From contig JAWKNO010000003.1 in NCBI GenBank assembly GCA_041391665.1, positions 407,987-471,986 on the forward strand: a stretch of 64,000 nt of DNA, given 5' to 3'. Numbering within the stretch: the stretch's first letter is position 1; every line of letters starts with the position of its first letter. Made by a program: the position numbers and the translations under genes. Positions 33,727-50,800 of this stretch are shown one piece after another. The notes below the pieces were generated by a model that worked only from the letters and a program-made list of their open reading frames with translations, made no database searches and was not told where the DNA came from. This DNA comes from Bacteroidia bacterium (GTDB lineage Bacteria; Bacteroidota; Bacteroidia; J057).

Positions 33727-34044
33727 ATGAGGATAATAGCAGTTAGTACTCTTCGGAATTTCTGGCAAAATCATACCCATTCAGAAGAATCTTTAAAATC
33801 CTGGTATCAAGAAGCCATACATTCTGAATGGCAGAATTCTCATGAACTTAAATCTAAATACAAAAATGCTTCAATAATATCTTCGAAACGAGTAGTTTTT
33901 AATATAAAGGGAAACGATTACAGACTAGTTGTAGATATTGAGTACAGGCTAAAGATTATCTTTATCGTTTGGATTGGAACCCATAATGAATATGACAAAA
34001 TCAATGTTAAGACAATACAATATGGTAAAGCCCATAAAAAATAA
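33727..34044 (+). CDS. higB: type II toxin HigB (RelE-fold mRNA interferase)
   Basis: MRIIAVSTLRNFW...VVFNIKGNDYRLVVDIEY...WIGTHNEYDKI matches the HigB family pattern. Confidence 0.8.
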   Translation: MRIIAVSTLRNFWQNHTHSEESLKSWYQEAIHSEWQNSHELKSKYKNASIISSKRVVFNIKGNDYRLVVDIEYRLKIIFIVWIGTHNEYDKINVKTIQYGKAHKK

Positions 34045-34381
34045 TGAACAATACGAATTATACCTTGAGCTGGCATATAATCTTATGCAATTGGACTTAG
34101 AGGAAAATTCCAAGGAATCAGATGAGTTGGAAGTTCTGAGCATTATGATAGAACAGTATGAGAAAATACACTATCCTATTGACACCCCAGGGCCGATTGA
34201 AGCTATAAAGTTCCGGATGGATCAGCTAAACATGAAGAAATCAGAACTTGAAAAAGTGTTAGGGTACCGAAGCCGGATCAGTGACATATTCTCTGGAAGA
34301 AGAAAACTTAGCCTTGGAATGATTCGCAGGATCCATGAAAAGTTAGATGTTCCGGCAGAAATTCTTATAAAAGAATACTAA
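34022..34381 (+). CDS. higA: antitoxin HigA (XRE-type HTH)
   Basis: Start MVKPIKNNEQYE overlaps the higB end by 23 nt. C-terminal HTH LGYRSRISDIFSGRRKLSLGMIRRIH. Confidence 0.8.
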   Translation: MVKPIKNNEQYELYLELAYNLMQLDLEENSKESDELEVLSIMIEQYEKIHYPIDTPGPIEAIKFRMDQLNMKKSELEKVLGYRSRISDIFSGRRKLSLGMIRRIHEKLDVPAEILIKEY

Positions 34382-37959: not shown

Positions 37960-38121
37960 GGGGGGAGGCTTTAAAAACCATCGGCCACCATACTGACTTT
38001 TGGTCATAATTCAATTGAGGAAACAACCCCACGAACAACAATAAATAGCTTCGATCCGTTTACAGAAATGATTATCTTTACCTGGTCTAATTGTTGACTG
38101 TTGTAATATAAATAGGTGGAA

Positions 38122-39006
38122 ATGAGTGCGCTAAAAGAGAGGTATGTTAATCCGCTAACTGATTTTGGGTTCAAGAAATTATTTGGCACTGAACCCAATA
38201 AGAGTTTATTAATTGACTTTCTCAACCAAATATTGCCGGCACGACATCAGATTAAGGACCTTAGCTATGCAAATTCCGAACAATTGGGATCTCATGATCT
38301 GGATCGAAAAGCTATATTTGATTTGTATTGTTTAGGGGAATCGGGAGAGCGATTTATCGTAGAGATTCAGAAAGCGAAGCAGAATTTTTTTAAAGACCGT
38401 AGTATTTACTATTCATCCTTTCCGATTCAGGAACAGGCGAAGAAAGGCGATTGGGATTACCGCTTAGATCCGGTTTATACAGTAGGCATTCTTGATTTCA
38501 TTTTTGAGGATCATAAAAAGGAGGAAGAATTACTGCATATAGTAGAATTAAAGAACCAACGCTGTGAGGTTTTTTATGACAAATTGAAGTTTATCTATAT
38601 TGAATTACCCAAATTCACCAAGCAGGAGGATGAGTTATCCTCTCATTTTGATAAATGGCTATATGTATTCCGCCACTTAGCGAAGTTAAATAACAGGCCA
38701 AAAGCTTTGCAAGAAAAAGTCTTTGGAAAATTATTTGAAGCCGCTGAGATCGCCCGTTTTACGCCTGAAGAAAAAGAGGCGTATGAGGAAAGTTTGAAAT
38801 ATTATCGGGACTTAAAAAATGTAGTGGATACTTCTAAAGAAGAGGGCAAGATTGAGGGCAAGATCGAAGGCAAGATCGAAGGCAAGATTGAGGGCAAGAT
38901 CGAAGGCAAGATCGAAGTTGCTATAGAATTAAAAAGAAATAATGTAGCTATTGATATTATCATTAAGTCGACAGGGTTATCTAAAGAAGAAATTGAGAAT
39001 TTGTAG
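38122..39006 (+). CDS. Rpn-family PD-(D/E)XK nuclease / putative transposase
   Basis: YVNPLTDFGFKKLFG N-terminus and the D...EIQ core (FDLYC...RFIVEIQKAKQ). Has a C-terminal EGKI repeat. Confidence 0.8.
   Translation: MSALKERYVNPLTDFGFKKLFGTEPNKSLLIDFLNQILPARHQIKDLSYANSEQLGSHDLDRKAIFDLYCLGESGERFIVEIQKAKQNFFKDRSIYYSSFPIQEQAKKGDWDYRLDPVYTVGILDFIFEDHKKEEELLHIVELKNQRCEVFYDKLKFIYIELPKFTKQEDELSSHFDKWLYVFRHLAKLNNRPKALQEKVFGKLFEAAEIARFTPEEKEAYEESLKYYRDLKNVVDTSKEEGKIEGKIEGKIEGKIEGKIEGKIEVAIELKRNNVAIDIIIKSTGLSKEEIENL
38842..38913 (+). repeat. 12-bp tandem repeat x6 encoding (EGKI)6
   Basis: gagggcaagatt/gaaggcaagatc units read directly from the sequence. Confidence 0.9.
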
Positions 39007-39085: not shown

Positions 39086-39895
39086 TTAATTGATATCCCG
39101 AAAGTCAAAAGTGCTCACACTACTGATTTTCATCCGTGCTGGATTGGCAGTTGAAAAATAAGTAAACAGGCCCAGATCTTTTTCCGAAGAACTGAATTTT
39201 AGATTTTCCATCGGAATTTTTTCATTGGTTCCTTCATTCATATCAGAAAGACGCGTTTTGACCAGCAATCCCTTTCCGCCAATGGGGTCGCCACCTGAAG
39301 AAACACCAGAGAAAATATATTGGATAATTTCAGGTGAACGACTGTTTCCTACTTTACACACCCAATGGAGTTGTTTGTCCTGGTCAGAACGAAGCAGTAC
39401 AAACAAACACCCCTGCCTGATTTCAGGTACCCCTTCAAATTTCCTCACTTTTCCCCGCATTTCTACCACATAATGTTTTCCATTGTGGTGAATCTTCACA
39501 GGTGATTTTAGCAGGTCTGGCTGCCCTGAGTTACACATTACATAGCAGTAATACATTCCCTTAAGGCTTTCCAACTGGTCATCGGGCTTGGGTTTTTGAT
39601 TTTCCCTGCTGGCAAGCCAATCCTGAACGCCCTCATAACCAGCAAATCGAACCAATTTTTCCACATATTCAACATTGAGCCCATAAGTGGTTTCATCTGC
39701 CTTTAATGCCCGATTAATTCTAAGATGCAGGTACTCATAGAGGTAACGTTGAGATATTTCGGGTGTACCGGGGACTGTGTTTTCAATAACCTGACTGAGC
39801 AGGCCACATTTGGAATACGTGAGCGGGAGACTGACTTCCGCTTCTTCGGAAAGGGTAAACCTCAATTCAAGAATATCTTTCAAAGAAAACTGCAT
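39086..39895 (-). CDS. hypothetical protein
   Basis: 269-aa ORF with no recognisable motif. Lies in the accessory stretch. Confidence 0.5.
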   Translation of the reverse strand: MQFSLKDILELRFTLSEEAEVSLPLTYSKCGLLSQVIENTVPGTPEISQRYLYEYLHLRINRALKADETTYGLNVEYVEKLVRFAGYEGVQDWLASRENQKPKPDDQLESLKGMYYCYVMCNSGQPDLLKSPVKIHHNGKHYVVEMRGKVRKFEGVPEIRQGCLFVLLRSDQDKQLHWVCKVGNSRSPEIIQYIFSGVSSGGDPIGGKGLLVKTRLSDMNEGTNEKIPMENLKFSSSEKDLGLFTYFSTANPARMKISSVSTFDFRDIN

Positions 39896-40556: not shown

Positions 40557-42035
40557 CTATGAATGTTGCAGGGCGGCTATTTTATTTTGTATTTCACCAA
40601 TCAGCCAGGAGTGGGCGTAAAAGGGTTTCTGCGTATTTGCCTTAATCAGCAACGCTTCAAGTTTTTTGACTCTGACCCCTAAGTTCACATCGCTCTCTGC
40701 TTCTGCCAGTTTTCGGAGAAGGTTATAAAATACCAGGTAGGCATGTCTGCGGCCCTCGCTGATATCTTTTTTTCGCTTCAGAGATCGAATATTTGCGTCA
40801 ACCTTGCTTTGGAAAAATTCAAACTCTTTATAGTTATGAACATCCGTAGTCAGGTATCTCGCTCTTATTTCAAGTGCTTTAGCAGCTACATCTATATTGG
40901 GGGAACGAAATTTTTTGTTGTGAAGAACTTTTTGGGCTTCCAGTGCGTTTCCCTGGGCTAAAAGGAGATCCGCCTGGCTGTAGTGAATCACATCTTCCGG
41001 TTGCTCCTTTTCCGGATCGAGAAACTTCGAAAAGTTTTCTATATGTTTTTCTGCTTCGTCATAAAGCCCCAATATGATACAGGTTTTCTGTAAATTTCTG
41101 TAATGGGAAGCGGGAAGCTTCTGGTCTATAAATAGCAGTTTCGTTTCTAATCCCCAAAGGTACAGTTGGTAGAGCATATTTAATTTCCCGTGACTTTCTT
41201 CCTGATTGAGATAGCGGATATAATGATTGGTAATCAGATTATAAAGGTTGGTCATGGGGATATGATGAATATGATTATATCCCTGCTTCAGTAAGGAGAT
41301 CAGTGCCTGCTGCCCGGTGTCATTGAGTTTTTCCCCGATGAGGAGGTAGGTCTGGTAAAGCAGTTTCAATAACAGGCTGCTATGATTTTCTTTTGAGAGA
41401 ACAAATCCGAGAAAAGTATCTGCCAGATCATCGGTTAATAATTCTCCGGAAACACGTTCATAGTTGATTTTCATCAGTATAAGCTGAAGTTTTTCCTCGG
41501 CTATCCATTGATTAAAGGAGTCGATAATATCCTGTTCGCTTTGGTTATCAGGAATAGCACCTCTTTTGACGAGCAATTGTTTTTTTAATTGGTAGATTTC
41601 ATAGAGGTATCCTTGAATGCGAACATGCGTTCCGACATCCTTTTTCAGTGCTTTTTCTACCTTTTTAAACTCTTTCAAAAAAAGATCGTGCAGGTTCCGA
41701 TCCAGTAGGGCCTTCAGATAAGCTACGGATAAAGCATATTTTTCAGGCTTCAGTTGGGAAATAGCGAGAAATGTGCTGAGTTTTTCCAGCATCAGATTGC
41801 GGATTTCCCGCACTTTATTATCGTTGTAGGGCTGGTTGGGGAAAAGATAGTGGAAGTGTTCACGGACATTACCTCCTTTTTCCAGAATCAGCTCCAGGTA
41901 AACAATGAGTTTATGGGGATTTTGTTTTTGGGCCAGGGTTTCGGAGGAATTTTCCCTAAGCTCATAAAAAAGCCAGAGGCGGAAATCTTCCCTCTCTGAG
42001 TCCGAAAGCGAATGGTACAATGTAAGAACCTTCAA
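40557..42035 (-). CDS. hypothetical all-alpha (TPR-like) protein
   Basis: 492-aa ORF that appears helical throughout. No catalytic motif. Confidence 0.55.
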   Translation of the reverse strand: MKVLTLYHSLSDSEREDFRLWLFYELRENSSETLAQKQNPHKLIVYLELILEKGGNVREHFHYLFPNQPYNDNKVREIRNLMLEKLSTFLAISQLKPEKYALSVAYLKALLDRNLHDLFLKEFKKVEKALKKDVGTHVRIQGYLYEIYQLKKQLLVKRGAIPDNQSEQDIIDSFNQWIAEEKLQLILMKINYERVSGELLTDDLADTFLGFVLSKENHSSLLLKLLYQTYLLIGEKLNDTGQQALISLLKQGYNHIHHIPMTNLYNLITNHYIRYLNQEESHGKLNMLYQLYLWGLETKLLFIDQKLPASHYRNLQKTCIILGLYDEAEKHIENFSKFLDPEKEQPEDVIHYSQADLLLAQGNALEAQKVLHNKKFRSPNIDVAAKALEIRARYLTTDVHNYKEFEFFQSKVDANIRSLKRKKDISEGRRHAYLVFYNLLRKLAEAESDVNLGVRVKKLEALLIKANTQKPFYAHSWLIGEIQNKIAALQHS

Positions 42036-42377
42036 AACAATTGTGCTTTAATTTTTATCAGCAGACAATTTTGCAGGCAGATCAACAATTCAAATGTTTT
42101 ATGCACTCAAAATAGCGCTTTATGCCTCAATTTCCAAGATAATGGAGATTTTCGGGGGAGAAATTTTTCCAACAATTACAAAAATGTGGTGCTAAATGCA
42201 TGTTGATTTATTGCGATTTTGTCTTGAGAGAAAAAAGAAGATAGAGAGTAATCATATACCATGCTGTGGCCGGTTCTCGGACAGGGATGGAAGTGGACCG
42301 GCCTGGTGTGGTGAGTGGCGCACCCGAATTAATGCCACAAAACCGTCAATAAGACAAAATGCCAAAATTAAACACCT

Positions 42378-42479
42378 ATGAATATTAAAAGTCTTGTCGC
42401 CATAGTTGTGTTGGGTTTTTCCATACTAGGCTGGTCGGCCTGGTTAATATTTGCTCTGATAGCTCTTAGTGGATATTGA
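42378..42479 (+). CDS. possible 33-aa hydrophobic peptide (MNIKSLVAIVVLGFSILGWSAWLIFALIALSGY)
   Basis: Hand-translated ATG...TGA ORF below the ORF-track cut-off, with a single predicted TM helix. It could be a chance ORF. Confidence 0.2.
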   Translation: MNIKSLVAIVVLGFSILGWSAWLIFALIALSGY

Positions 42480-42572
42480 ATCTATTAAAAGGATAGTATT
42501 TATTTTTCTTCGCATTGAAAAAAGTATTAATGGGAAAACAGAGATTGGTTATTCTACCTATGCAAGCGTCAA

Positions 42573-42580
42573 TAAATTTG
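42573..42580 (+). promoter_or_regulatory. candidate -7 box TAAATTTG upstream of the four-gene operon
   Basis: Matches TAnnTTTG about 113 nt upstream of the ATG at 42693. Motif match only. Confidence 0.3.
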
Positions 42581-42692
42581 CAATAAAATCAAAATAGAAA
42601 AGTCCCAAGCATGAGCTACGCGCGCCATAAATTCGCCCACTGCTCGTCATGGTGTGCAGCTCGGGTGTTGGGCCACATAAAAAAAGAAAACA

Positions 42693-42881
42693 ATGGAAAA
42701 AGTCAAAAAACCGAAAAAGAAAGTGCCAAAAATTGTCAACGGCAATTACAATTGTATGTCTTGCACATGTAGTGACTTTAATGAAAGTTTGACAAGTAAT
42801 GTTTGTACATGTGGGCATTCATTTTATGACCATAGATTTTATCAAAATCAAAGTGAAGAAAAAAATAAAATTCAATTATAA
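42693..42881 (+). CDS. 62-aa lysine-rich protein with SWIM-like zinc finger (operon gene 1)
   Basis: C21-x2-C24-x-C26-x11-C38-x-C40-x-H42-x4-H47. The C-x-C-x13-C-x-H subset fits the SWIM signature, and CTCSDF...CTCGH resembles CxCPxF...CKH. Confidence 0.55.
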   Translation: MEKVKKPKKKVPKIVNGNYNCMSCTCSDFNESLTSNVCTCGHSFYDHRFYQNQSEEKNKIQL

Positions 42882-42886
42882 TTATT

Positions 42887-42991
42887 ATGAATGATGACTT
42901 AGATAGCATGAATGGTGATTTAGCTAACATGAATAGTGATTTAGTTAGCATGAATGGTGATTTTGTTGGCATGAATGACAACTTAGTTGAC
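42887..42991 (+). repeat. 21-bp tandem repeat x5
   Basis: Reads atgaatgatgacttagatagc / atgaatggtgatttagctaac / atgaatagtgatttagttagc / atgaatggtgattttgttggc / atgaatgacaacttagttgac. Confidence 0.9.
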
Positions 42992-43969
42992 ATGTTGATT
43001 ACTAGGCTTGTTTCAAATGAACAGGTTAGAAGAGGACAACTGATAAACCAGCAAGCCCAATGGGAATTTGAGCAATACATGGAGTATTGGAGGTTTCTTA
43101 CCCAAGATGAACTTAGACAAAGGGAATATGAAAGAAGAATCACAGAACACATCCTTAGAAATCAATTGCAAAAAGATTTACAAACCGAATTAGATATCAA
43201 AAGATTAAGATTTCAGAAATATGGGTCCTCATACTCATCTACAGAATGGCTCAAGGCACAAGGATACAGCAGAAGTAGCCGACATTTGTTTGTTGTCTTT
43301 AGTGTTCATTTTAATGATTCGACCATACCTAATCCAATGTATTTCTTGAAAGATAGGTTAAAAGAGCAGAACAAAGACTTTGAACAGAAAAAATCACTAT
43401 TAATTCTTGATACGGCTGAAGGGTTTGGTACGAGCTCTGAAGCTGCAATGTTTTATAATAGAGAATTTATTTTTAAACCCGCTATTATTGTTTACGGACT
43501 TCTCTCTGGAAACTACCTCAGATTTTATGCAACGTTTGGCGGTGTTCTTGAAAATCAGGTCAAAATAGAATACGTTAATGATGATGATATTCAAATAAGT
43601 ATAGAACCTGAAAATATTACCTTAGGAGAAATTCCGATAAGCATAATAGAGAAGATATCCTCAGCTTCAAACGAGTTGCAAAAGGGGAAAGAAAAAACCG
43701 ACAGTGTTGTTGACTACGTCATTAACTCTCAACTCCAGTTACTAATTGATTATGCATTAATTTGGATTACCAATAAAGAAAACAAAATTTGGGATAATGT
43801 AAGGAGCAAGAAAAAAAATCGAATAAAAGAAATATCAGATGAAGTGCCAGAACTTGGAGAAAAATTAAAAGAATTTGACGAATTAATAAATCGTCGAAGC
43901 ATTGAAATTGAAAAAATAAGTCGCTCTCGTACATACAAGGATGACAAAAACAGTAATCCTTTCTTATAA
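42887..43969 (+). CDS. hypothetical protein with N-terminal heptad repeats and coiled-coil segments (operon gene 2)
   Basis: Starts 5 nt after gene 1. Has an (MNxDLxx)5 N-terminus and charged helical stretches at both ends. Confidence 0.65.
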   Translation: MNDDLDSMNGDLANMNSDLVSMNGDFVGMNDNLVDMLITRLVSNEQVRRGQLINQQAQWEFEQYMEYWRFLTQDELRQREYERRITEHILRNQLQKDLQTELDIKRLRFQKYGSSYSSTEWLKAQGYSRSSRHLFVVFSVHFNDSTIPNPMYFLKDRLKEQNKDFEQKKSLLILDTAEGFGTSSEAAMFYNREFIFKPAIIVYGLLSGNYLRFYATFGGVLENQVKIEYVNDDDIQISIEPENITLGEIPISIIEKISSASNELQKGKEKTDSVVDYVINSQLQLLIDYALIWITNKENKIWDNVRSKKKNRIKEISDEVPELGEKLKEFDELINRRSIEIEKISRSRTYKDDKNSNPFL

Positions 43970-43989
43970 ACTCAAGAAAAACAAAATCA

Positions 43990-45030
43990 ATGAATTCATT
44001 TAAAATAACAATACTTGGTGCTCAAAACTCTGGAAAAACTTGTTACATGTATGCGATGTATAAAATAATGAGTGAAGGCAGAGACGGATTCACTTTTACA
44101 GCATGTCAGCCATATTCATTAGAACTGGATAAAGATGCTCATAATGAGCTACTTAAAGGATGGCAAATAATTTCTCAAAAAAAAGAATGGGTGCCAGGTA
44201 CAATTGGCTCGGGCAAGAACTATAATTTTTCATTTAATTATGCTGGGAAAAGTTTAATTAGTTTTGAGTACTTAGATTACAGAGGATCTGCCTTAAAAGA
44301 CGGAAAAGATTCAAAAGATTACCAAACTTTGTTATCAAATCTTTCTAATTCGCAAGTAATAATGTGGTGTGTTCCAGGTCAGTATTGGAAAGACCAGGAT
44401 GAGGACGAATACTCTAATATTGATTTGGAAATTTCAAATATCAATGCACTTCTTGCAGATTTAAAAAGTAAGAGAGACAAAGATAAGAAGCCTGTTCCTC
44501 CCGTAATTCTTCTTATTACAAAATATGACCAATGCAAGAATGTACCAAGTGATAATCTGCAAAGATTAATAAAGTCAAAACTGAACATCTTATTTACCAA
44601 AGAAGGGGATTGGCTTGTTACTATTATGAAATCTACTCTCGGTTTTGATTTGTCGGAATTTGATAATGATTTAGAAAAAGCCACAATTAAGCCAAAATGG
44701 ATTATGGAACCAATAGCCTTTGCCATTTACTTTGTATTTGAACAACTGAAAAAAGCGTTTTCTGAAGATATTAGTTATCATAGTAGGGAGGCAGATCGTT
44801 ACAAAGGCAGTTTTCTTGGCATAAAAGATTGGTGGTTTTCAGAAGAAATAGAACACCATGAATTAAGAGAGAAAAAAGCATCAGATGAAATTGATTTCAT
44901 CAAAAAATACGCACCCCTTGTAAAAGAAACTTTTTTCCCCAAAGATTCTGCGTATTTCTACTTCAAAGGCAAAAAATTAAAATTAGAACAATTGGAGTCT
45001 TTAATTTCTGGCAATAAAACAGATATGTGA
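43990..45030 (+). CDS. orphan P-loop GTPase-like NTPase (operon gene 3)
   Basis: G1 G10AQNSGKT17, G3 D96YRG99 and G4 T177KYD180 preceded by a hydrophobic strand VILLI. Candidate switch-I Thr in WVPGT71. Confidence 0.7.
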   Translation: MNSFKITILGAQNSGKTCYMYAMYKIMSEGRDGFTFTACQPYSLELDKDAHNELLKGWQIISQKKEWVPGTIGSGKNYNFSFNYAGKSLISFEYLDYRGSALKDGKDSKDYQTLLSNLSNSQVIMWCVPGQYWKDQDEDEYSNIDLEISNINALLADLKSKRDKDKKPVPPVILLITKYDQCKNVPSDNLQRLIKSKLNILFTKEGDWLVTIMKSTLGFDLSEFDNDLEKATIKPKWIMEPIAFAIYFVFEQLKKAFSEDISYHSREADRYKGSFLGIKDWWFSEEIEHHELREKKASDEIDFIKKYAPLVKETFFPKDSAYFYFKGKKLKLEQLESLISGNKTDM

Positions 45031-45058
45031 AAAATTTGTTAATCTAAAAAATATAACA

Positions 45059-46105
45059 ATGTCGCAGCCCAAAAAAATTAACGCAGCTCCATTCGTGTTG
45101 AGTAGAACAAACTCAATCGATTATAGAATTTTATCAATGCCAAATTCATTGAAGTCAACCGCCAATGATATCAGGCAATTAATTGAAATAAATTTTTTAA
45201 GCTCTCCAAACAGCCTTTACGATGAAGAGACTCAATTTCGTTGGACTATTTTTCAATTCAATAAAGTTTTATTTATTGGGTTAGTTGGACTTGCTCATAA
45301 TATCTCAGATGTTAACAACCGGTGTAACGAGGGGACAAGACCCTTCTATGTTTATTTGGGGTATGTTATCGAGAATGTGTCAAATGAAAGCGTAATCGAA
45401 TATTTTCCATTTTCTGTTGACACATTCAGGAATTTATACTTGTATATTAATTCGAAGTGGGACGAAGTAGTTGAATCAGAACCTTATTCGTCAGAAACCA
45501 TAATTTTAGAATCTAAACCAATTAGTACCATTGAACAAATAAAAATTAGGATTGAAGAAGACTGGACTCTCATATATCCCGACAGTAAAATGGAGGCTAT
45601 TTGGCAAAATATATTGAGTAATCCCCCTGAAAATAATTTTATTGTATGTTTGGGAATGGCTACGGAAGAGGATGCGCTTCAATCTACTATGGCTACGAAA
45701 GAGGATGTGCTTCAATCTACTATAAATATTGCTACTATTCCCGCGAAAAACTATCATTACGAAGAAATACCATATGCCTTTAAAAAAATAAAAAAAGAAG
45801 AACTGCCAGAAGAAGCTAAACCTATTATTGAGGAGAAATTAGATAAATTTCCAGAAAAAAGAGTGTTTGAAAAAGCAAAAGAAAAGACTGTAGCTTTTTT
45901 AGGTTTCGGAACTGTAATAACTCTCGCTGGTGCTATATTGAAATCAGTTTACATAGTTGTCATCGGAGGCTCAATTATAGTAATAGGAGGTTCTTTAACT
46001 GCAATAGATAACTTCCTAAAAAAAGATAAAGAAGAAGAAAAACACCGCCCCAAAAAGCGCCCAAATCATAAAGATAAGCCTCCTCCTCCTGATTTAGGTG
46101 AATAG
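45059..46105 (+). CDS. membrane-anchored protein with C-terminal Gly-rich TM hairpin and basic Pro-rich tail (operon gene 4)
   Basis: VAFLGFGTVITLAGAIL-KS-VYIVVIGGSIIVIGGSLTAI followed by KKDKEEEKHRPKKRPNHKDKPPPP. The ~270-aa N-terminal soluble region has no recognised fold. Confidence 0.65.
   Translation: MSQPKKINAAPFVLSRTNSIDYRILSMPNSLKSTANDIRQLIEINFLSSPNSLYDEETQFRWTIFQFNKVLFIGLVGLAHNISDVNNRCNEGTRPFYVYLGYVIENVSNESVIEYFPFSVDTFRNLYLYINSKWDEVVESEPYSSETIILESKPISTIEQIKIRIEEDWTLIYPDSKMEAIWQNILSNPPENNFIVCLGMATEEDALQSTMATKEDVLQSTINIATIPAKNYHYEEIPYAFKKIKKEELPEEAKPIIEEKLDKFPEKRVFEKAKEKTVAFLGFGTVITLAGAILKSVYIVVIGGSIIVIGGSLTAIDNFLKKDKEEEKHRPKKRPNHKDKPPPPDLGE
45656..45721 (+). repeat. 33-bp tandem duplication (MATEEDALQST / MATKEDVLQST)
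   Basis: Two adjacent 33-nt copies with three mismatches, read directly. Confidence 0.9.
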
Positions 46106-46115
46106 CAAATAGGAC

Positions 46116-46314
46116 GCAATTCAAATTGTCGCGGTGAACGGAAAGGTTCCTCCTCCTTAGGTCGTCGAGTCTGAAAGGACTCCTTCGGAGATGACGGTTT
46201 GTCATGAGAAAAACCGCTTCTCCGGCCGGAGAAGAGCGTTTCTGGTAGGATGCCACCTCACCCTGACGACCAACGGAAGGAAGGGTCTATTGCTTTTGCG
46301 ACAATTTGGTTTGC
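46116..46314. other. GC-rich structured element bounded by 17-nt imperfect inverted repeats (candidate ncRNA or MITE)
   Basis: gcaattcaaattgtcgc (46116-46132) against gcgacaatttggtttgc (46298-46314), with an 11-bp perfect core. Internal hairpins are gtcgtc/gatgac (46161-46195) and the perfect palindrome cttctccggccggagaag (46217-46234). Confidence 0.4.
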
Positions 46315-46389
46315 TCCCAATTATACCTTAACATGAAATTCTCCAAAGAGTTCAGGTCATTTCGGAGAACAGGAAAATGCCTTTCATGT

Positions 46390-48767: not shown

Positions 48768-50591
48768 TTAACCCCTCACCACATTCAATACCACCATCTG
48801 CGTCAGCAGCCCTCCCGCTGATTGCCTGCCCGATATGGGAAATCGCATGGATTTTCCTTCCCTGATAACGTCCAGTACAACCTGGGCCTTGTCTGATTTG
48901 CCAAGGATAGATGAAATTTCGGAAGGCTCATTTACCCTGATGCCATCCAGAGCAACGATGACATCCCCGACTTTTATGCCTGATTTTTCGAGGTTTCCAC
49001 CTTCGTCTGTACCCAATACCATAATCCCCAGACTGCCCTGATAGGTTGCCGGGTTTTCAATCCTGTAGATGGAAACACGGGCATATAACTGCTGAAGCGG
49101 GCTCAATTCTGTGTTTTTCAACGCCTGTCGAAAATAATAAGCCGATGCCTGTCCATCACATTCGATAAACGAAAAGGCCGCTCTCTCAAACAACTCCGCC
49201 GGATCTGTAATGCTGTTGTCTAAAGTCTGTTTTTTCAGGTTTTCATACTCTCCCTCCGTAAGGCTGTCAGGTAGTCCGGTAAGTTTGCGCAGGTAAACCA
49301 GGTAGGGATCGGTGATCTGTCGTTTGATTTCGCGTTTTTGGGCATCTTCCATTATTCCGGTTTCTCTACTTAGCAATTCTGTTTTCTGCTGGTAAAGGGT
49401 AGAGAGAACCTGATTCCATTCCTGAAACGTAAGTTTACCCTCTGGAAGTGGCAGGTCGAGCTGAAGTGCGCGGAACTGATCTTCAGGGAAACCGGGATCC
49501 GCTTCGGGCAACTGGATGTACTTCAGGGTAGCTTCAACCAATGCCCGTTTACCTTCCACGATTTTCATGTCCCGGAAATATTTTGCCCTCGCGGCTCTTT
49601 CTGTGTCGCTGATATGATCCAATCGCTGGAGATACAGCAATTGGTCCTGATACTCCGAGATTTGCATGTCAATGTCCTCGAAAAACCGATAGACAAAATC
49701 AACGCCTTCCTTGACTTTAGGCTGAAAAACCAGATCTTTATTCAGCACTTCGTACTGTCGGCGGTTGATAGGCCACTTTCTTCGGTACATTTGGATATTT
49801 TCCTCGTACTGGCGAAAGCTATGAAGTGCACGCTGCTGAAAGCCTTCTTCAATTTCATTGATTTTTTTGGTGCCCCAATATGGCGCTGGATTATCTTCTT
49901 CCAACATCCAAAGCAGGGAACTATAGTTAGAGAAGAGATTCTTCATTTCTTCATGGATAGAGTTCCATGCACCCTGAAAATGCTCATCGGCTCCTGGATT
50001 AATAATAAGATCTCTACCAGAATTATATTGGTTTCCAATATAAGTGCTCCCCCCCACAAACAACCCGATTACCAGCCCTATCAGACCTGTTCTCTTTTGA
50101 TTTGAAGCAAATCGCCGAACGCTGGACCATAAAGTTCCTGACCTCCTGGAAACCGGATTTCCACGGACAATGGACACGATTTTTTCTACAATTTCTTCTG
50201 TTGGTAGTTCCGAGGAAATGGCAAACCGGTCTGCCATCATGGGTGAAGATTTTCTTACTTCACTTTCTGTTACGCCATGCCAGATAGGAATAATTCTGGA
50301 CTGACCTACCGTTTCAACTCCGTAAAATGCCGCATATTCATCTCTCGTCCATTTATGCTCTAAATAGGCTAGACTGATAATCGCCACACAATATGCTGAC
50401 CGAGAAATAGCTGCATCAATCTCCCCCATTAGCTTATTCCCAGGTTTTAGTTTATATCCTGAATACCAAACCTTTAGGTCAGTTTGTGATAATGCCTCTA
50501 CAAATGCTTCTGTAAAATGCTGCTTATCTTCTACTGCGTGAGAGATAAATACATCGAACTCAAATTTCTCTTCCCGAAACGGATTTTTCAT
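48768..50591 (-). CDS. TIR domain - TM helix - long helical region - PDZ domain protein
   Basis: TIR is FDVFISHAVEDK...KVWY...CVAIIS...KWTRDEY (a W-x3-E catalytic-type Glu is present). TM helix is GLIGLVIGLFVGGSTYI after RR/KR. C-terminal PDZ-like segment is GIMVLG...GIKVGDVIVALDGIRV. The start is set at the internal MKNPF. Confidence 0.75.
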   Translation of the reverse strand: MKNPFREEKFEFDVFISHAVEDKQHFTEAFVEALSQTDLKVWYSGYKLKPGNKLMGEIDAAISRSAYCVAIISLAYLEHKWTRDEYAAFYGVETVGQSRIIPIWHGVTESEVRKSSPMMADRFAISSELPTEEIVEKIVSIVRGNPVSRRSGTLWSSVRRFASNQKRTGLIGLVIGLFVGGSTYIGNQYNSGRDLIINPGADEHFQGAWNSIHEEMKNLFSNYSSLLWMLEEDNPAPYWGTKKINEIEEGFQQRALHSFRQYEENIQMYRRKWPINRRQYEVLNKDLVFQPKVKEGVDFVYRFFEDIDMQISEYQDQLLYLQRLDHISDTERAARAKYFRDMKIVEGKRALVEATLKYIQLPEADPGFPEDQFRALQLDLPLPEGKLTFQEWNQVLSTLYQQKTELLSRETGIMEDAQKREIKRQITDPYLVYLRKLTGLPDSLTEGEYENLKKQTLDNSITDPAELFERAAFSFIECDGQASAYYFRQALKNTELSPLQQLYARVSIYRIENPATYQGSLGIMVLGTDEGGNLEKSGIKVGDVIVALDGIRVNEPSEISSILGKSDKAQVVLDVIREGKSMRFPISGRQSAGGLLTQMVVLNVVRG

Positions 50592-50800
50592 ATTAATAAA
50601 GACTTTCTCAAAGCAGAAGATGCTTCTAAAAATAGTTTTTTTTGAGAAAACAGCCAAAGCCCAACCAGCTACCTACAACAAAAAATGCGATCCCGCTAAC
50701 AGAATTGATTATCTTTACCTGATACGGTTGAACAACAGGCTCTGATAACCGTTAACTATTTCCTGTCTCATTCCTATTACTTATCGCTTAAAAATACAAA

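Follow-up and report, generated by a model that had tools for sequence, protein, structure and literature searches.

The DO-GTPases, as defined by Kaur, Burroughs, Iyer and Aravind (eLife 2020, 9:e52696; PMC7159879), are described as the constant switch of mobile, 'GTPase-centric' predicted conflict systems. In these systems a GAP1 protein is usually encoded downstream, often with C-terminal transmembrane (TM) segments or a two-TM SLATT domain, and the SLATT domains fused to GAP1 are predicted to be pore-forming effectors (PMC7159879). The third constant component is a GASH protein in the N1 type and a protein with FNIII repeats in the N2 type, and variable effectors accompany these parts (PMC7159879). 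Here we analysed a cassette of four genes at positions 42693-46105 of a 64,000-nucleotide (nt) stretch of contig JAWKNO010000003.1 from a Bacteroidia bacterium (the whole stretch is called the window below), and compared it with these and with other defence systems.

In our favoured reading, to which we give about an even chance, genes 2–4 of the cassette are a rare variant of DO-GTPase conflict system, made up of three genes and acquired horizontally, that acts through a membrane effector. Gene 1 may or may not be part of this variant. The targets of DO-GTPase systems are probably phages or mobile elements.

A compact cassette of foreign composition

The four genes lie on the same strand and are tightly packed, with recomputed intergenic gaps of 5, 20 and 28 nt (Table 1), as an initial annotation of this DNA had described. 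Its hand counts of G+C in four 60-nt samples (16/60, 19/60, 36/60 and 38/60) were all exact on recount, and the compositional shift that it had suspected is present: the G+C content (GC) is 32.9% for the cassette against a mean of 45.7% elsewhere. Over 537 non-overlapping sections of 3.4 kb, this mean is accompanied by a standard deviation (sd) of 2.1 and a minimum of 39.1%, so that the cassette is ∼6 sd below the mean. GC at third codon positions (GC3) is 24–31% in the four cassette genes against 39–56% in neighbouring genes. At 300-nt resolution, the AT-rich block extends from ∼42.7 to ∼46.0 kb, has sharp edges and is coextensive with the four open reading frames (ORFs). The combination of the four ORFs and this AT-richness is far beyond chance, and it is clear that the cassette is a real, compact operon of foreign composition.

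Assignment of gene 3 to the DO-GTPase family

Gene 3 scored 29.0 bits against the Pfam model PF19993 (DO-GTPase2), for which the gathering score is 27. The consensus of its subfamily reached 43.2 bits with the same model and 28.9 bits with PF19975 (DO-GTPase1), and the precomputed Pfam annotation of gene 3 homologues agrees with the DO-GTPase assignment. The nucleotide-binding motifs are intact, with G1 as GAQNSGKT (G10–T17), G3 as DYRG (D96–G99) and G4 as TKYD (T177–D180), and the residues of these motifs are invariant or nearly so in both GTPase alignments (A1 and A2). On sequence grounds, gene 3 is assigned to the TRAFAC GTPases of the DO-GTPase family, within clade B of its subfamily, and is predicted to be a molecular switch. 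Thus, the initial annotation was right to place a P-loop GTPase in the cassette, with G1, G3 and G4 all intact, and wrong to call it an orphan, since gene 3 lies above the DO-GTPase2 gathering score (29 versus 27 bits). The same match places the cassette in a published class of computationally predicted conflict systems (PMC7159879); it is therefore not categorically new.

Gene 3 shows some possible differences from the family as described. A conserved glutamate in the Walker B motif is reported for DO-GTPases (PMC7159879). The acidic Walker B residue of gene 3 is an aspartate, Asp96 of the DYRG motif; a glutamate three residues upstream, Glu93, is not conserved across the subfamily. Two paralogous GTPases are present in 38% of DO-GTPase systems (PMC7159879), and two to four in many of the relatives described below. 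The window has a single GTPase, and this lacks an N-terminal zinc ribbon. In one gene 3 homologue, P0005 (L007:866-1861), the P-loop is degenerate (GSGLT) and the DxxG motif is gone; its gene adjoins that of an intact paralogue. Because of this adjacency, P0005 and its neighbour may be a pseudo-GTPase/GTPase pair.

Gene 4 and the partner family of the GTPase

A word-seeded homology search with gene 3 matched four other clusters; searches of the same kind with gene 4 and with gene 2 each matched only their own query. On the contigs that carry the gene 3 matches, the unannotated genes flanking the GTPases were found to be gene 4 homologues (phmmer, E 2e-10 to 2e-5). Scans with the GTPase alignments gave 14 loci in reference genomes and 17 in metagenomes, and the total came to 39 related loci. 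Iterative profile searches over all ORFs of the 39 loci collected 80 GTPase ORFs and 51 ORFs of the gene-4 family (the latter by jackhmmer).

The association of the two families is close. Every locus with gene-4-family members has at least one member directly adjoining a GTPase gene, and wherever a related locus leaves more than 1.1 kb free on either side, a gene-4-family gene adjoins the GTPase genes. Six loci have a GTPase match without a partner gene (L007, L008, L018, L033, L034 and L038), and all are truncated on at least one side. In larger systems the gene-4 family is duplicated alongside the GTPase. In neighbour-joining trees, gene 3 and gene 4 both fall on long branches beside the single-pair locus L037, a shared placement that is compatible with co-diversification of the two genes, though only suggestive of it. 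Judged by this linkage, gene 4 is the predicted cognate partner of this GTPase clade.

In gene 4, a conserved N-terminal domain of ∼230 aa is joined through a variable linker to a TM hairpin near the C-terminus, and a basic, proline-rich tail follows. The residues R16, T17, D21, R23, P28 and G101 are invariant in an alignment of 23 sequences (A3), and all are kept in gene 4. Two adjoining hydrophobic segments at about aa 276–309, with Kyte-Doolittle peaks of 1.72 and 2.18, agree with the earlier statement that one of the proteins ends in a glycine-rich TM hairpin. A C-terminal hydrophobic hairpin, often glycine-rich, is found at the same place in ∼40% of family members (19 of 44), and the other 25 lack TM segments; loci with two gene-4 paralogues mostly have one with the hairpin and one without it. 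No Pfam match was obtained for 23 members of the family or for its consensus (E≤0.1–1), no PDB sequence match or PADLOC match was found for the family, and its genes are labelled 'hypothetical protein' in RefSeq.

Gene 2 and the conserved gene order

An exhaustive phmmer search with gene 2 gave 21 matches. The best relative, P0008, is 39% identical over nearly the full length (E 4e-46) and is encoded on a 2.5-kb metagenome contig (L040). There, the next gene begins 12 nt after P0008 and encodes 349 aa with 47% identity to gene 3 (E 2e-119), and the start of a gene-4-family gene overlaps this GTPase gene; the first 50 residues of the gene-4 relative contain the motif RTNDVDYRI and match the family hidden Markov model with E 1.5e-13. 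Genes 2-3-4 are thus an operon conserved at substantial divergence, a sign that all three are under selection. The synteny on which the initial annotation had staked its proposal is therefore found for three genes, in that the gene 2-3-4 order is repeated in L040 and the contexts of homologues resemble conflict systems. It is not found for the unit of four genes, since only genes 2-3-4 are conserved together and gene 1 has no homologue anywhere.

This conservation bears on the possibility that the cassette is a decaying, non-functional transfer remnant, with ORFs that are still open only by chance and a spurious gene 1. The extreme rarity of the triad, the recent in-frame tandem duplications in genes 2 and 4 and the singleton status of gene 1 would all be expected of such a remnant. 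However, retention of the gene order at 39–47% identity in L040 implies purifying selection, three ORFs of ∼350 aa are unbroken in DNA of 33% GC, where stop codons abound, the catalytic motifs of the GTPase are intact, and gene 4 keeps all family-invariant residues. A remnant is thus highly improbable.

Gene 2 has a long helix or coiled coil at its N-terminus, a central globular domain and a helical C-terminal region. The motifs of the family, NPM and GF.S...A..FYN.EF...PAIIVYG (alignment A4), are in the central domain. The heptad repeat that the initial annotation saw in gene 2 is there, as five 21-nt units at the N-terminus. These heptads are missing from P0008, the closest homologue, and are a lineage-specific expansion. 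Together with a 33-nt duplication in the gene 4 linker (Table 1), they are a sign of recent slippage-type expansion in the cassette.

The gene-2 domain is also found in other settings. It is N-terminal to a LeoA-like dynamin GTPase in P0011 and to a septin/MMR_HSR1-like GTPase in P0017, and is fused to TPR repeats in P0010. In L043 (3771-7008), genes for a ZorA-like protein of 503 aa and a ZorB-like protein of 230 aa are followed by a gene-2-family protein, and a ZorB-like gene is also present in L041. The arrangement in L043 looks like that of a Zorya-like stator module whose third component is undescribed. In L046, a family member is encoded near EAD11-domain proteins and an EcoRV-like endonuclease. 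No Pfam match, PDB match or recognisable enzymatic motif was found for the family, and no significant PADLOC match was obtained for gene 2 relatives. Gene 2 was also not found in the 39 GTPase loci, profile searches included (hmmsearch with A4, E≥0.04).

Three other identities were considered for gene 2 and rejected. Its place in the operon corresponds to that of 'GTPase A', and its LLILDTAEG segment is reminiscent of a Ras G3 motif; as a degenerate GTPase paralogue, it gave hhalign probabilities of 0.2% for the single sequence and 0.06% for the family profile. Profile comparison ruled out a relationship to gene 4. As a diverged form of one of the recurrent accessory families of the 39 loci, it gave hhalign probabilities all below 9%, in addition to the A4 result above. 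We regard gene 2 as a candidate adaptor or sensor, and the position of its distant relatives after ZorA/ZorB-like genes suggests that the domain acts downstream of a membrane-embedded sensor.

As the main alternative, the conflict system could be wired differently, with the gene 4 hairpin tethering the GTPase to the membrane and gene 2 being the effector that the GTPase releases or activates. Zorya systems carry effectors after ZorA and ZorB. The corresponding position of gene-2-like proteins in L043 and the fusion of gene-2-like domains to GTPases in single polypeptides fit this arrangement, as does the lack of TM segments in 25 of 44 gene-4-family members, which points to the N-terminal domain as the seat of the conserved function. 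Against it, the gene-2 family lacks any recognisable enzymatic motif and matched nothing in Pfam or the PDB, and, being absent from the 39 other GTPase loci, gene 2 cannot be the general effector of the clade. We consider this wiring unlikely.

Distribution and gene content of related loci

The clade is found mostly in filamentous cyanobacteria, and also in Bacteroidales/Prevotellaceae, in one member of the Thiotrichaceae and in one of the Ktedonobacterales, a patchy distribution. DO-GTPase systems were nearly absent from cyanobacteria in Kaur et al. 2020 (PMC7159879), and a clade centred on cyanobacteria was therefore probably outside their description. Multi-GTPase versions are carried by the cyanobacterial plasmids NZ_AP014816.1, NC_019728.1 (L048) and NC_019428.1, in which the partner genes are all labelled 'hypothetical'; the plasmid hosts of the relatives are Geminocystis, Calothrix PCC 6303 and Anabaena sp. 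90. When plasmids were searched by tblastn for a canonical GAP1 system that had been annotated, only further unnamed relatives of this clade came up. Horizontal acquisition and mobility are supported by these plasmid-borne relatives, the patchiness across phyla, and the sharp edges and low GC (∼6 sd) of the cassette.

The fullest versions are the cyanobacterial loci L002, L010, L012, L015, L029 and L031. Their order is an HSP70 protein reduced to its nucleotide-binding domain (NBD), a gene-4-like protein with TM segments, GTPase A, GTPase B, a gene-4-like protein without TM segments, a C39-like peptidase, a 185-aa protein and a pair of dynamin-like GTPases matched by the LeoA/LeoBC models of PADLOC. 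Dynamins of the LeoA/LeoBC type were seen in L003 and L012, both full-size relatives. The full cyanobacterial operon unites DO-GTPase and Eleos-like parts.

Elsewhere, a CHAT (caspase-like) peptidase domain is fused to a clade B DO-GTPase in proteins of 741–756 aa (L001:1429-3654 and L009:2446-4716, from Planktothrix and Floridaenema), and the fusions lie beside zinc-ribbon (ZnR)-kinase and TPR-kinase genes. L034 has a vWA protein and a ZnR-kinase, and AAA and AbiEii-like ATPases and coiled-coil proteins are among the accessory genes of other relatives. Thus, the core GTPase/gene-4 pair is constant across ∼30 loci while the accessory genes vary, as in the DO-GTPase/GAP1 systems. The range of accessory genes, which comprises CHAT-GTPases, kinases, vWA, C39, HSP70 NBD, dynamins, AAA and AbiEii-like ATPases, supports the reading as a conflict system.

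The HSP70/MreB-like ATPases and dynamin-like pairs of the full-size relatives, together with the concentration of these in filamentous cyanobacteria, could also be read as those of a module that remodels membranes or the cytoskeleton, in housekeeping or under stress, and has no part in immunity. The cassette would then be a regulatory GTPase with a membrane partner, kin to HSP70/dynamin operons of these organisms. We find this improbable, given the patchy occurrence across phyla, the plasmid-borne relatives and the foreign composition of the cassette, the accessory genes that change from locus to locus (CHAT, kinases and AbiEii-like ATPases included), and the lack of both HSP70 and dynamin in the version in the window.

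Gene 1, flanking genes and other features

Gene 1 is lysine-rich and rich in cysteine and histidine (C21, C24, C26, C38, C40, H42 and H47), and its GC3 of 0.24 is like that of the rest of the cassette. The initial annotation had taken it for a SWIM mini-protein. The corresponding CxCx13CxH pattern is present (C24-x-C26-x13-C40-x-H42), but the Pfam SWIM model (PF04434) is not matched at E≤1. No match to Pfam, PADLOC, NCBIfam or PHROGs was found for gene 1, no homologue among the ORFs of the 39 related loci, and no equivalent within the 307 nt that precede the gene 2 homologue on L040. It forms a singleton cluster that is called only in a Logan assembly and is unannotated by NCBI. We put at about even odds whether gene 1 is a lineage-specific, zinc-binding accessory or a spurious ORF. 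Zinc ribbons are fused to 60% of DO-GTPases (PMC7159879), which a zinc-binding gene 1 would echo.

Upstream of gene 1 there is a candidate promoter motif of the Bacteroidota −7 type (Table 1). The pattern TAnnTTTG has a single occurrence within 42000-43000; since its frequency across the window is 0.44 per kb, the match could be due to chance. A sigma-70 scan gave no promoter enrichment.

The structured element that follows gene 4 is at the 3′ compositional boundary of the cassette. The minimum free energies were −89 kcal/mol for the + strand (z −5.0) and −87.5 kcal/mol for the − strand (z −5.4), and none of 200 shuffled sequences was as stable. A 25-nt inverted repeat closes the element, a palindrome lies inside it, and the window contains no second copy. 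No Rfam match was found for the element (E<0.1) or anywhere in 38–50 kb. A terminator complex, a non-coding RNA and an insertion-site remnant are the candidates for its identity.

Table 1. Positions of the cassette genes, their repeats and the flanking features in the window
Feature	Position	Strand	Description
Gene 1 ORF	42693-42881	+	62 aa
Gene 2 ORF	42887-43969	+	360 aa
Gene 3 ORF	43990-45030	+	346 aa
Gene 4 ORF	45059-46105	+	348 aa
Five tandem 21-nt units in gene 2	42887..42991	+	MN(D/G/S)DLxx heptads at the N-terminus; from repeat search
33-nt tandem duplication in gene 4 linker	45656..45721	+	MATEEDALQST / MATKEDVLQST; copies 94% identical
Glycine-rich TM hairpin of gene 4	45887..46006	+	About aa 277-316: AFLGFGTVITLAGAILKSVYIVVIGGSIIVIGGSLTAIDNF
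Candidate Bacteroidota-type −7 promoter motif	42573..42580	+	TAAATTTG; 113 nt 5′ of gene 1 ATG; weak evidence
GC-richer multi-branched structured element	46112-46318	.	About 210 nt, directly 3′ of gene 4 stop
Internal palindrome of structured element	46210-46241		
HigB toxin/HTH antitoxin-type pair	33727-34381		Overlapping ORFs of 105 aa and 135 aa in a low-GC patch
PDDEXK_2 gene	38116-39006		Rpn-like
12-nt tandem repeat in PDDEXK_2 gene	38830-38925		∼8 units, (E-G-K-I)n near C-terminus
Upstream ORF	39086-39895	−	269 aa
Upstream ORF	40557-42035	−	492 aa
TIR-PDZ gene	48768-50657	−	629 aa

The initial annotation described the neighbourhood as a defence island, with an Rpn PD-(D/E)XK nuclease, a TIR protein and an IS630-like remnant. 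The first two were found, as the PDDEXK_2 and TIR-PDZ genes of Table 1, while the IS630-like remnant could not be located. The split ORFs that might have been an insertion sequence remnant resembled instead, in tblastn against annotated plasmids, a pair of a HigB-family toxin and a helix-turn-helix antitoxin or regulator, with 53% identity to Chryseobacterium. In the TIR-PDZ protein the TIR domain is N-terminal and the PDZ domain C-terminal; the TIR domain matches the PADLOC candidate PDC-S66 (1e-43) as well as ThsB TIR models, and the gene may be an independent single-gene defence candidate. The PDDEXK_2 gene contains a 12-nt tandem repeat near its 3′ end. The two ORFs just upstream of the cassette have a GC of 41–42%, between that of the cassette and the bulk, and no Pfam or PADLOC match was found for either. 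The larger of them was considered as a homologue of the ∼470-aa gene (family 9) that lies divergently upstream of single-pair systems, and was rejected, as hmmsearch gave nothing at E≤1. The defence island thus stands in part: the TIR-PDZ gene, the Rpn-like gene and the HigBA pair speak for it, but they are interleaved with genes for FG-GAP and GH81 proteins, which are secreted by the type IX secretion system (T9SS). The presence of the TIR-PDZ (PDC-S66) and Rpn-like genes in the flanks supports the conflict-system reading.

The nearby HigBA pair and Rpn-like gene, the foreign, sharply bounded AT-rich block and the occurrence of relatives on mobilizable plasmids would also suit an addiction or exclusion module of a mobile element, left behind after integration and serving in toxin-antitoxin-like stabilisation or in competition between elements. 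However, searches around the cassette turned up neither an integrase nor a transposase, and no tRNA or direct repeats at its flanks (the window as a whole is without tRNA genes), and it has no small antitoxin-like partner besides the doubtful gene 1. We give such a module little credence.

Comparison with described systems

No named defence system was matched by genes 1–4 in PADLOC-DB v2.0.0 (best E 0.0084 and 0.067, over short stretches), which covers Gabija, Septu, Zorya, Lamassu, Thoeris, CBASS, retrons, Eleos and the PDC candidates, among others, in agreement with the initial annotation, and no significant matches were found in PADLOC, NCBIfam or PHROGs; PADLOC matches of the gene-4-like and GTPase relatives were also not significant. 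The earlier suggestion of an undescribed conflict system is accordingly correct for a compact, foreign cassette without a named counterpart, and not for the GTPase, which is in the published DO-GTPase class. Two of the three conserved components belong, as far as sequence searches go, to families that no curated resource names.

The DO-GTPase/GAP1-N2 systems are the nearest in design. As in these, the GTPase passes the DO-GTPase2 model and a partner gene with C-terminal TM segments is directly downstream, and, as in DO-GTPase systems generally, the arrangement is membrane-proximal and mobile and has variable accessory genes. The NBD-only HSP70, the ZnR-kinase with vWA and the peptidases of the relatives are all themes of the GAP1-N2 type in PMC7159879. 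Unlike the GAP1 systems, the partner in the cassette has no match to GAP1-N1, GAP1-N2, GAP1-M or GAP1-C, provided that the library holds those models, the clade is centred on cyanobacteria, and the gene-2 family is not described in PMC7159879.

Eleos shares with the cassette a GTPase and an association with the membrane; the relatives encode LeoA/LeoBC-like dynamins, and a gene-2-like domain is carried by the LeoA-like GTPase P0011. The window itself has no dynamin-like gene, and gene 3 is a small TRAFAC DO-GTPase with no match to the LeoA/LeoBC models. Zorya is linked to the cassette by the distant relatives of gene 2 directly 3′ of ZorA/ZorB-like genes (L043, and the ZorB-like gene of L041), but the window has no ZorA or ZorB and the link is through remote homologues only, at ∼23–24% identity. 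Finally, a C-terminal hairpin of two hydrophobic helices with many small residues, on a regulatory domain, makes gene 4 resemble two-TM and glycine-zipper abortive infection effectors, for example SLATT; it has no SLATT or glycine-zipper Pfam match, and pore formation is putative.

Proposed mechanism and assessment

The logic of an NTPase switch plus a membrane effector is plausible for this cassette. Gene 3 would serve as a GTP/GDP switch that docks on gene 4 through the latter's conserved N-terminal domain, and gene 2, through its coiled coil and globular domain, would link an infection or envelope cue to the switch. Switching would alter the membrane-inserted hairpin of gene 4, by oligomerisation or permeabilisation, and the outcome would be growth arrest or death of the infected cell. 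More speculatively, the invariant arginines of the gene 4 N-terminal domain may aid GTP hydrolysis.

Several points weigh against the reading of genes 2–4 as a DO-GTPase conflict system with a membrane effector. The gene-4 family has no Pfam match, and hence none to GAP1 models if the library holds them; the parallel between gene 4 and GAP1 is therefore positional only. The window encodes only one GTPase and lacks a GASH or FNIII component; neither domain was matched by genes 1 and 2 or by those accessory genes of the relatives that were scanned. The gene 2-3-4 triad is known from two loci only, one of them a 2.5-kb fragment. Single-sequence AlphaFold2 models gave mean pLDDT (predicted local distance difference test) values of 33.8 for gene 4 and 40.2 for gene 2, which are unusable, leaving both genes without fold-level support. 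The TM hairpin of gene 4 could be a mere anchor. Ordinary secreted-protein genes are nearby, those immediately downstream encoding the T9SS-secreted FG-GAP and GH81 proteins, and a scan of viral contigs found no relatives on them. Full-text searches of the searchable literature found no functional data on DO-GTPase systems.

A further proposal is that genes 2–4 represent a third type of DO-GTPase system, defined by a partner that would be distinct from GAP1, with a new ∼230-aa domain that has invariant Arg, Thr and Asp residues and often ends in a glycine-rich membrane hairpin, and by a new GTPase-associated domain that is shared with Zorya-like stator modules and with dynamin- and septin-like GTPases. 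We hold this tentatively, at rather less than an even chance.

Significance

DO-GTPase systems were predicted in 2020 to be regulated conflict systems, and the searchable literature yielded no later experiments on them. Being large loci of many genes, the known examples are hard to dissect. Genes 2–4, in contrast, occupy ∼3.2 kb and are about the smallest version among the loci analysed here, with one GTPase, one membrane-hairpin partner and one accessory protein. The small size of the cassette therefore makes it a practical entry point to the DO-GTPases as putative immune switches, to the role of the partner family, and to the gene-2 domain as a possible general adaptor between membrane sensors and GTPases. 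Both the clade and the unnamed family of its partners occur commonly in filamentous cyanobacteria and on their plasmids, a group in which such systems were near-lacking according to the original survey. Should the cassette confer phage resistance, it would become the first minimal DO-GTPase immune module that is tractable by experiment, and the shared adaptor domain would link GTPase-switch systems with stator-type sensing systems.

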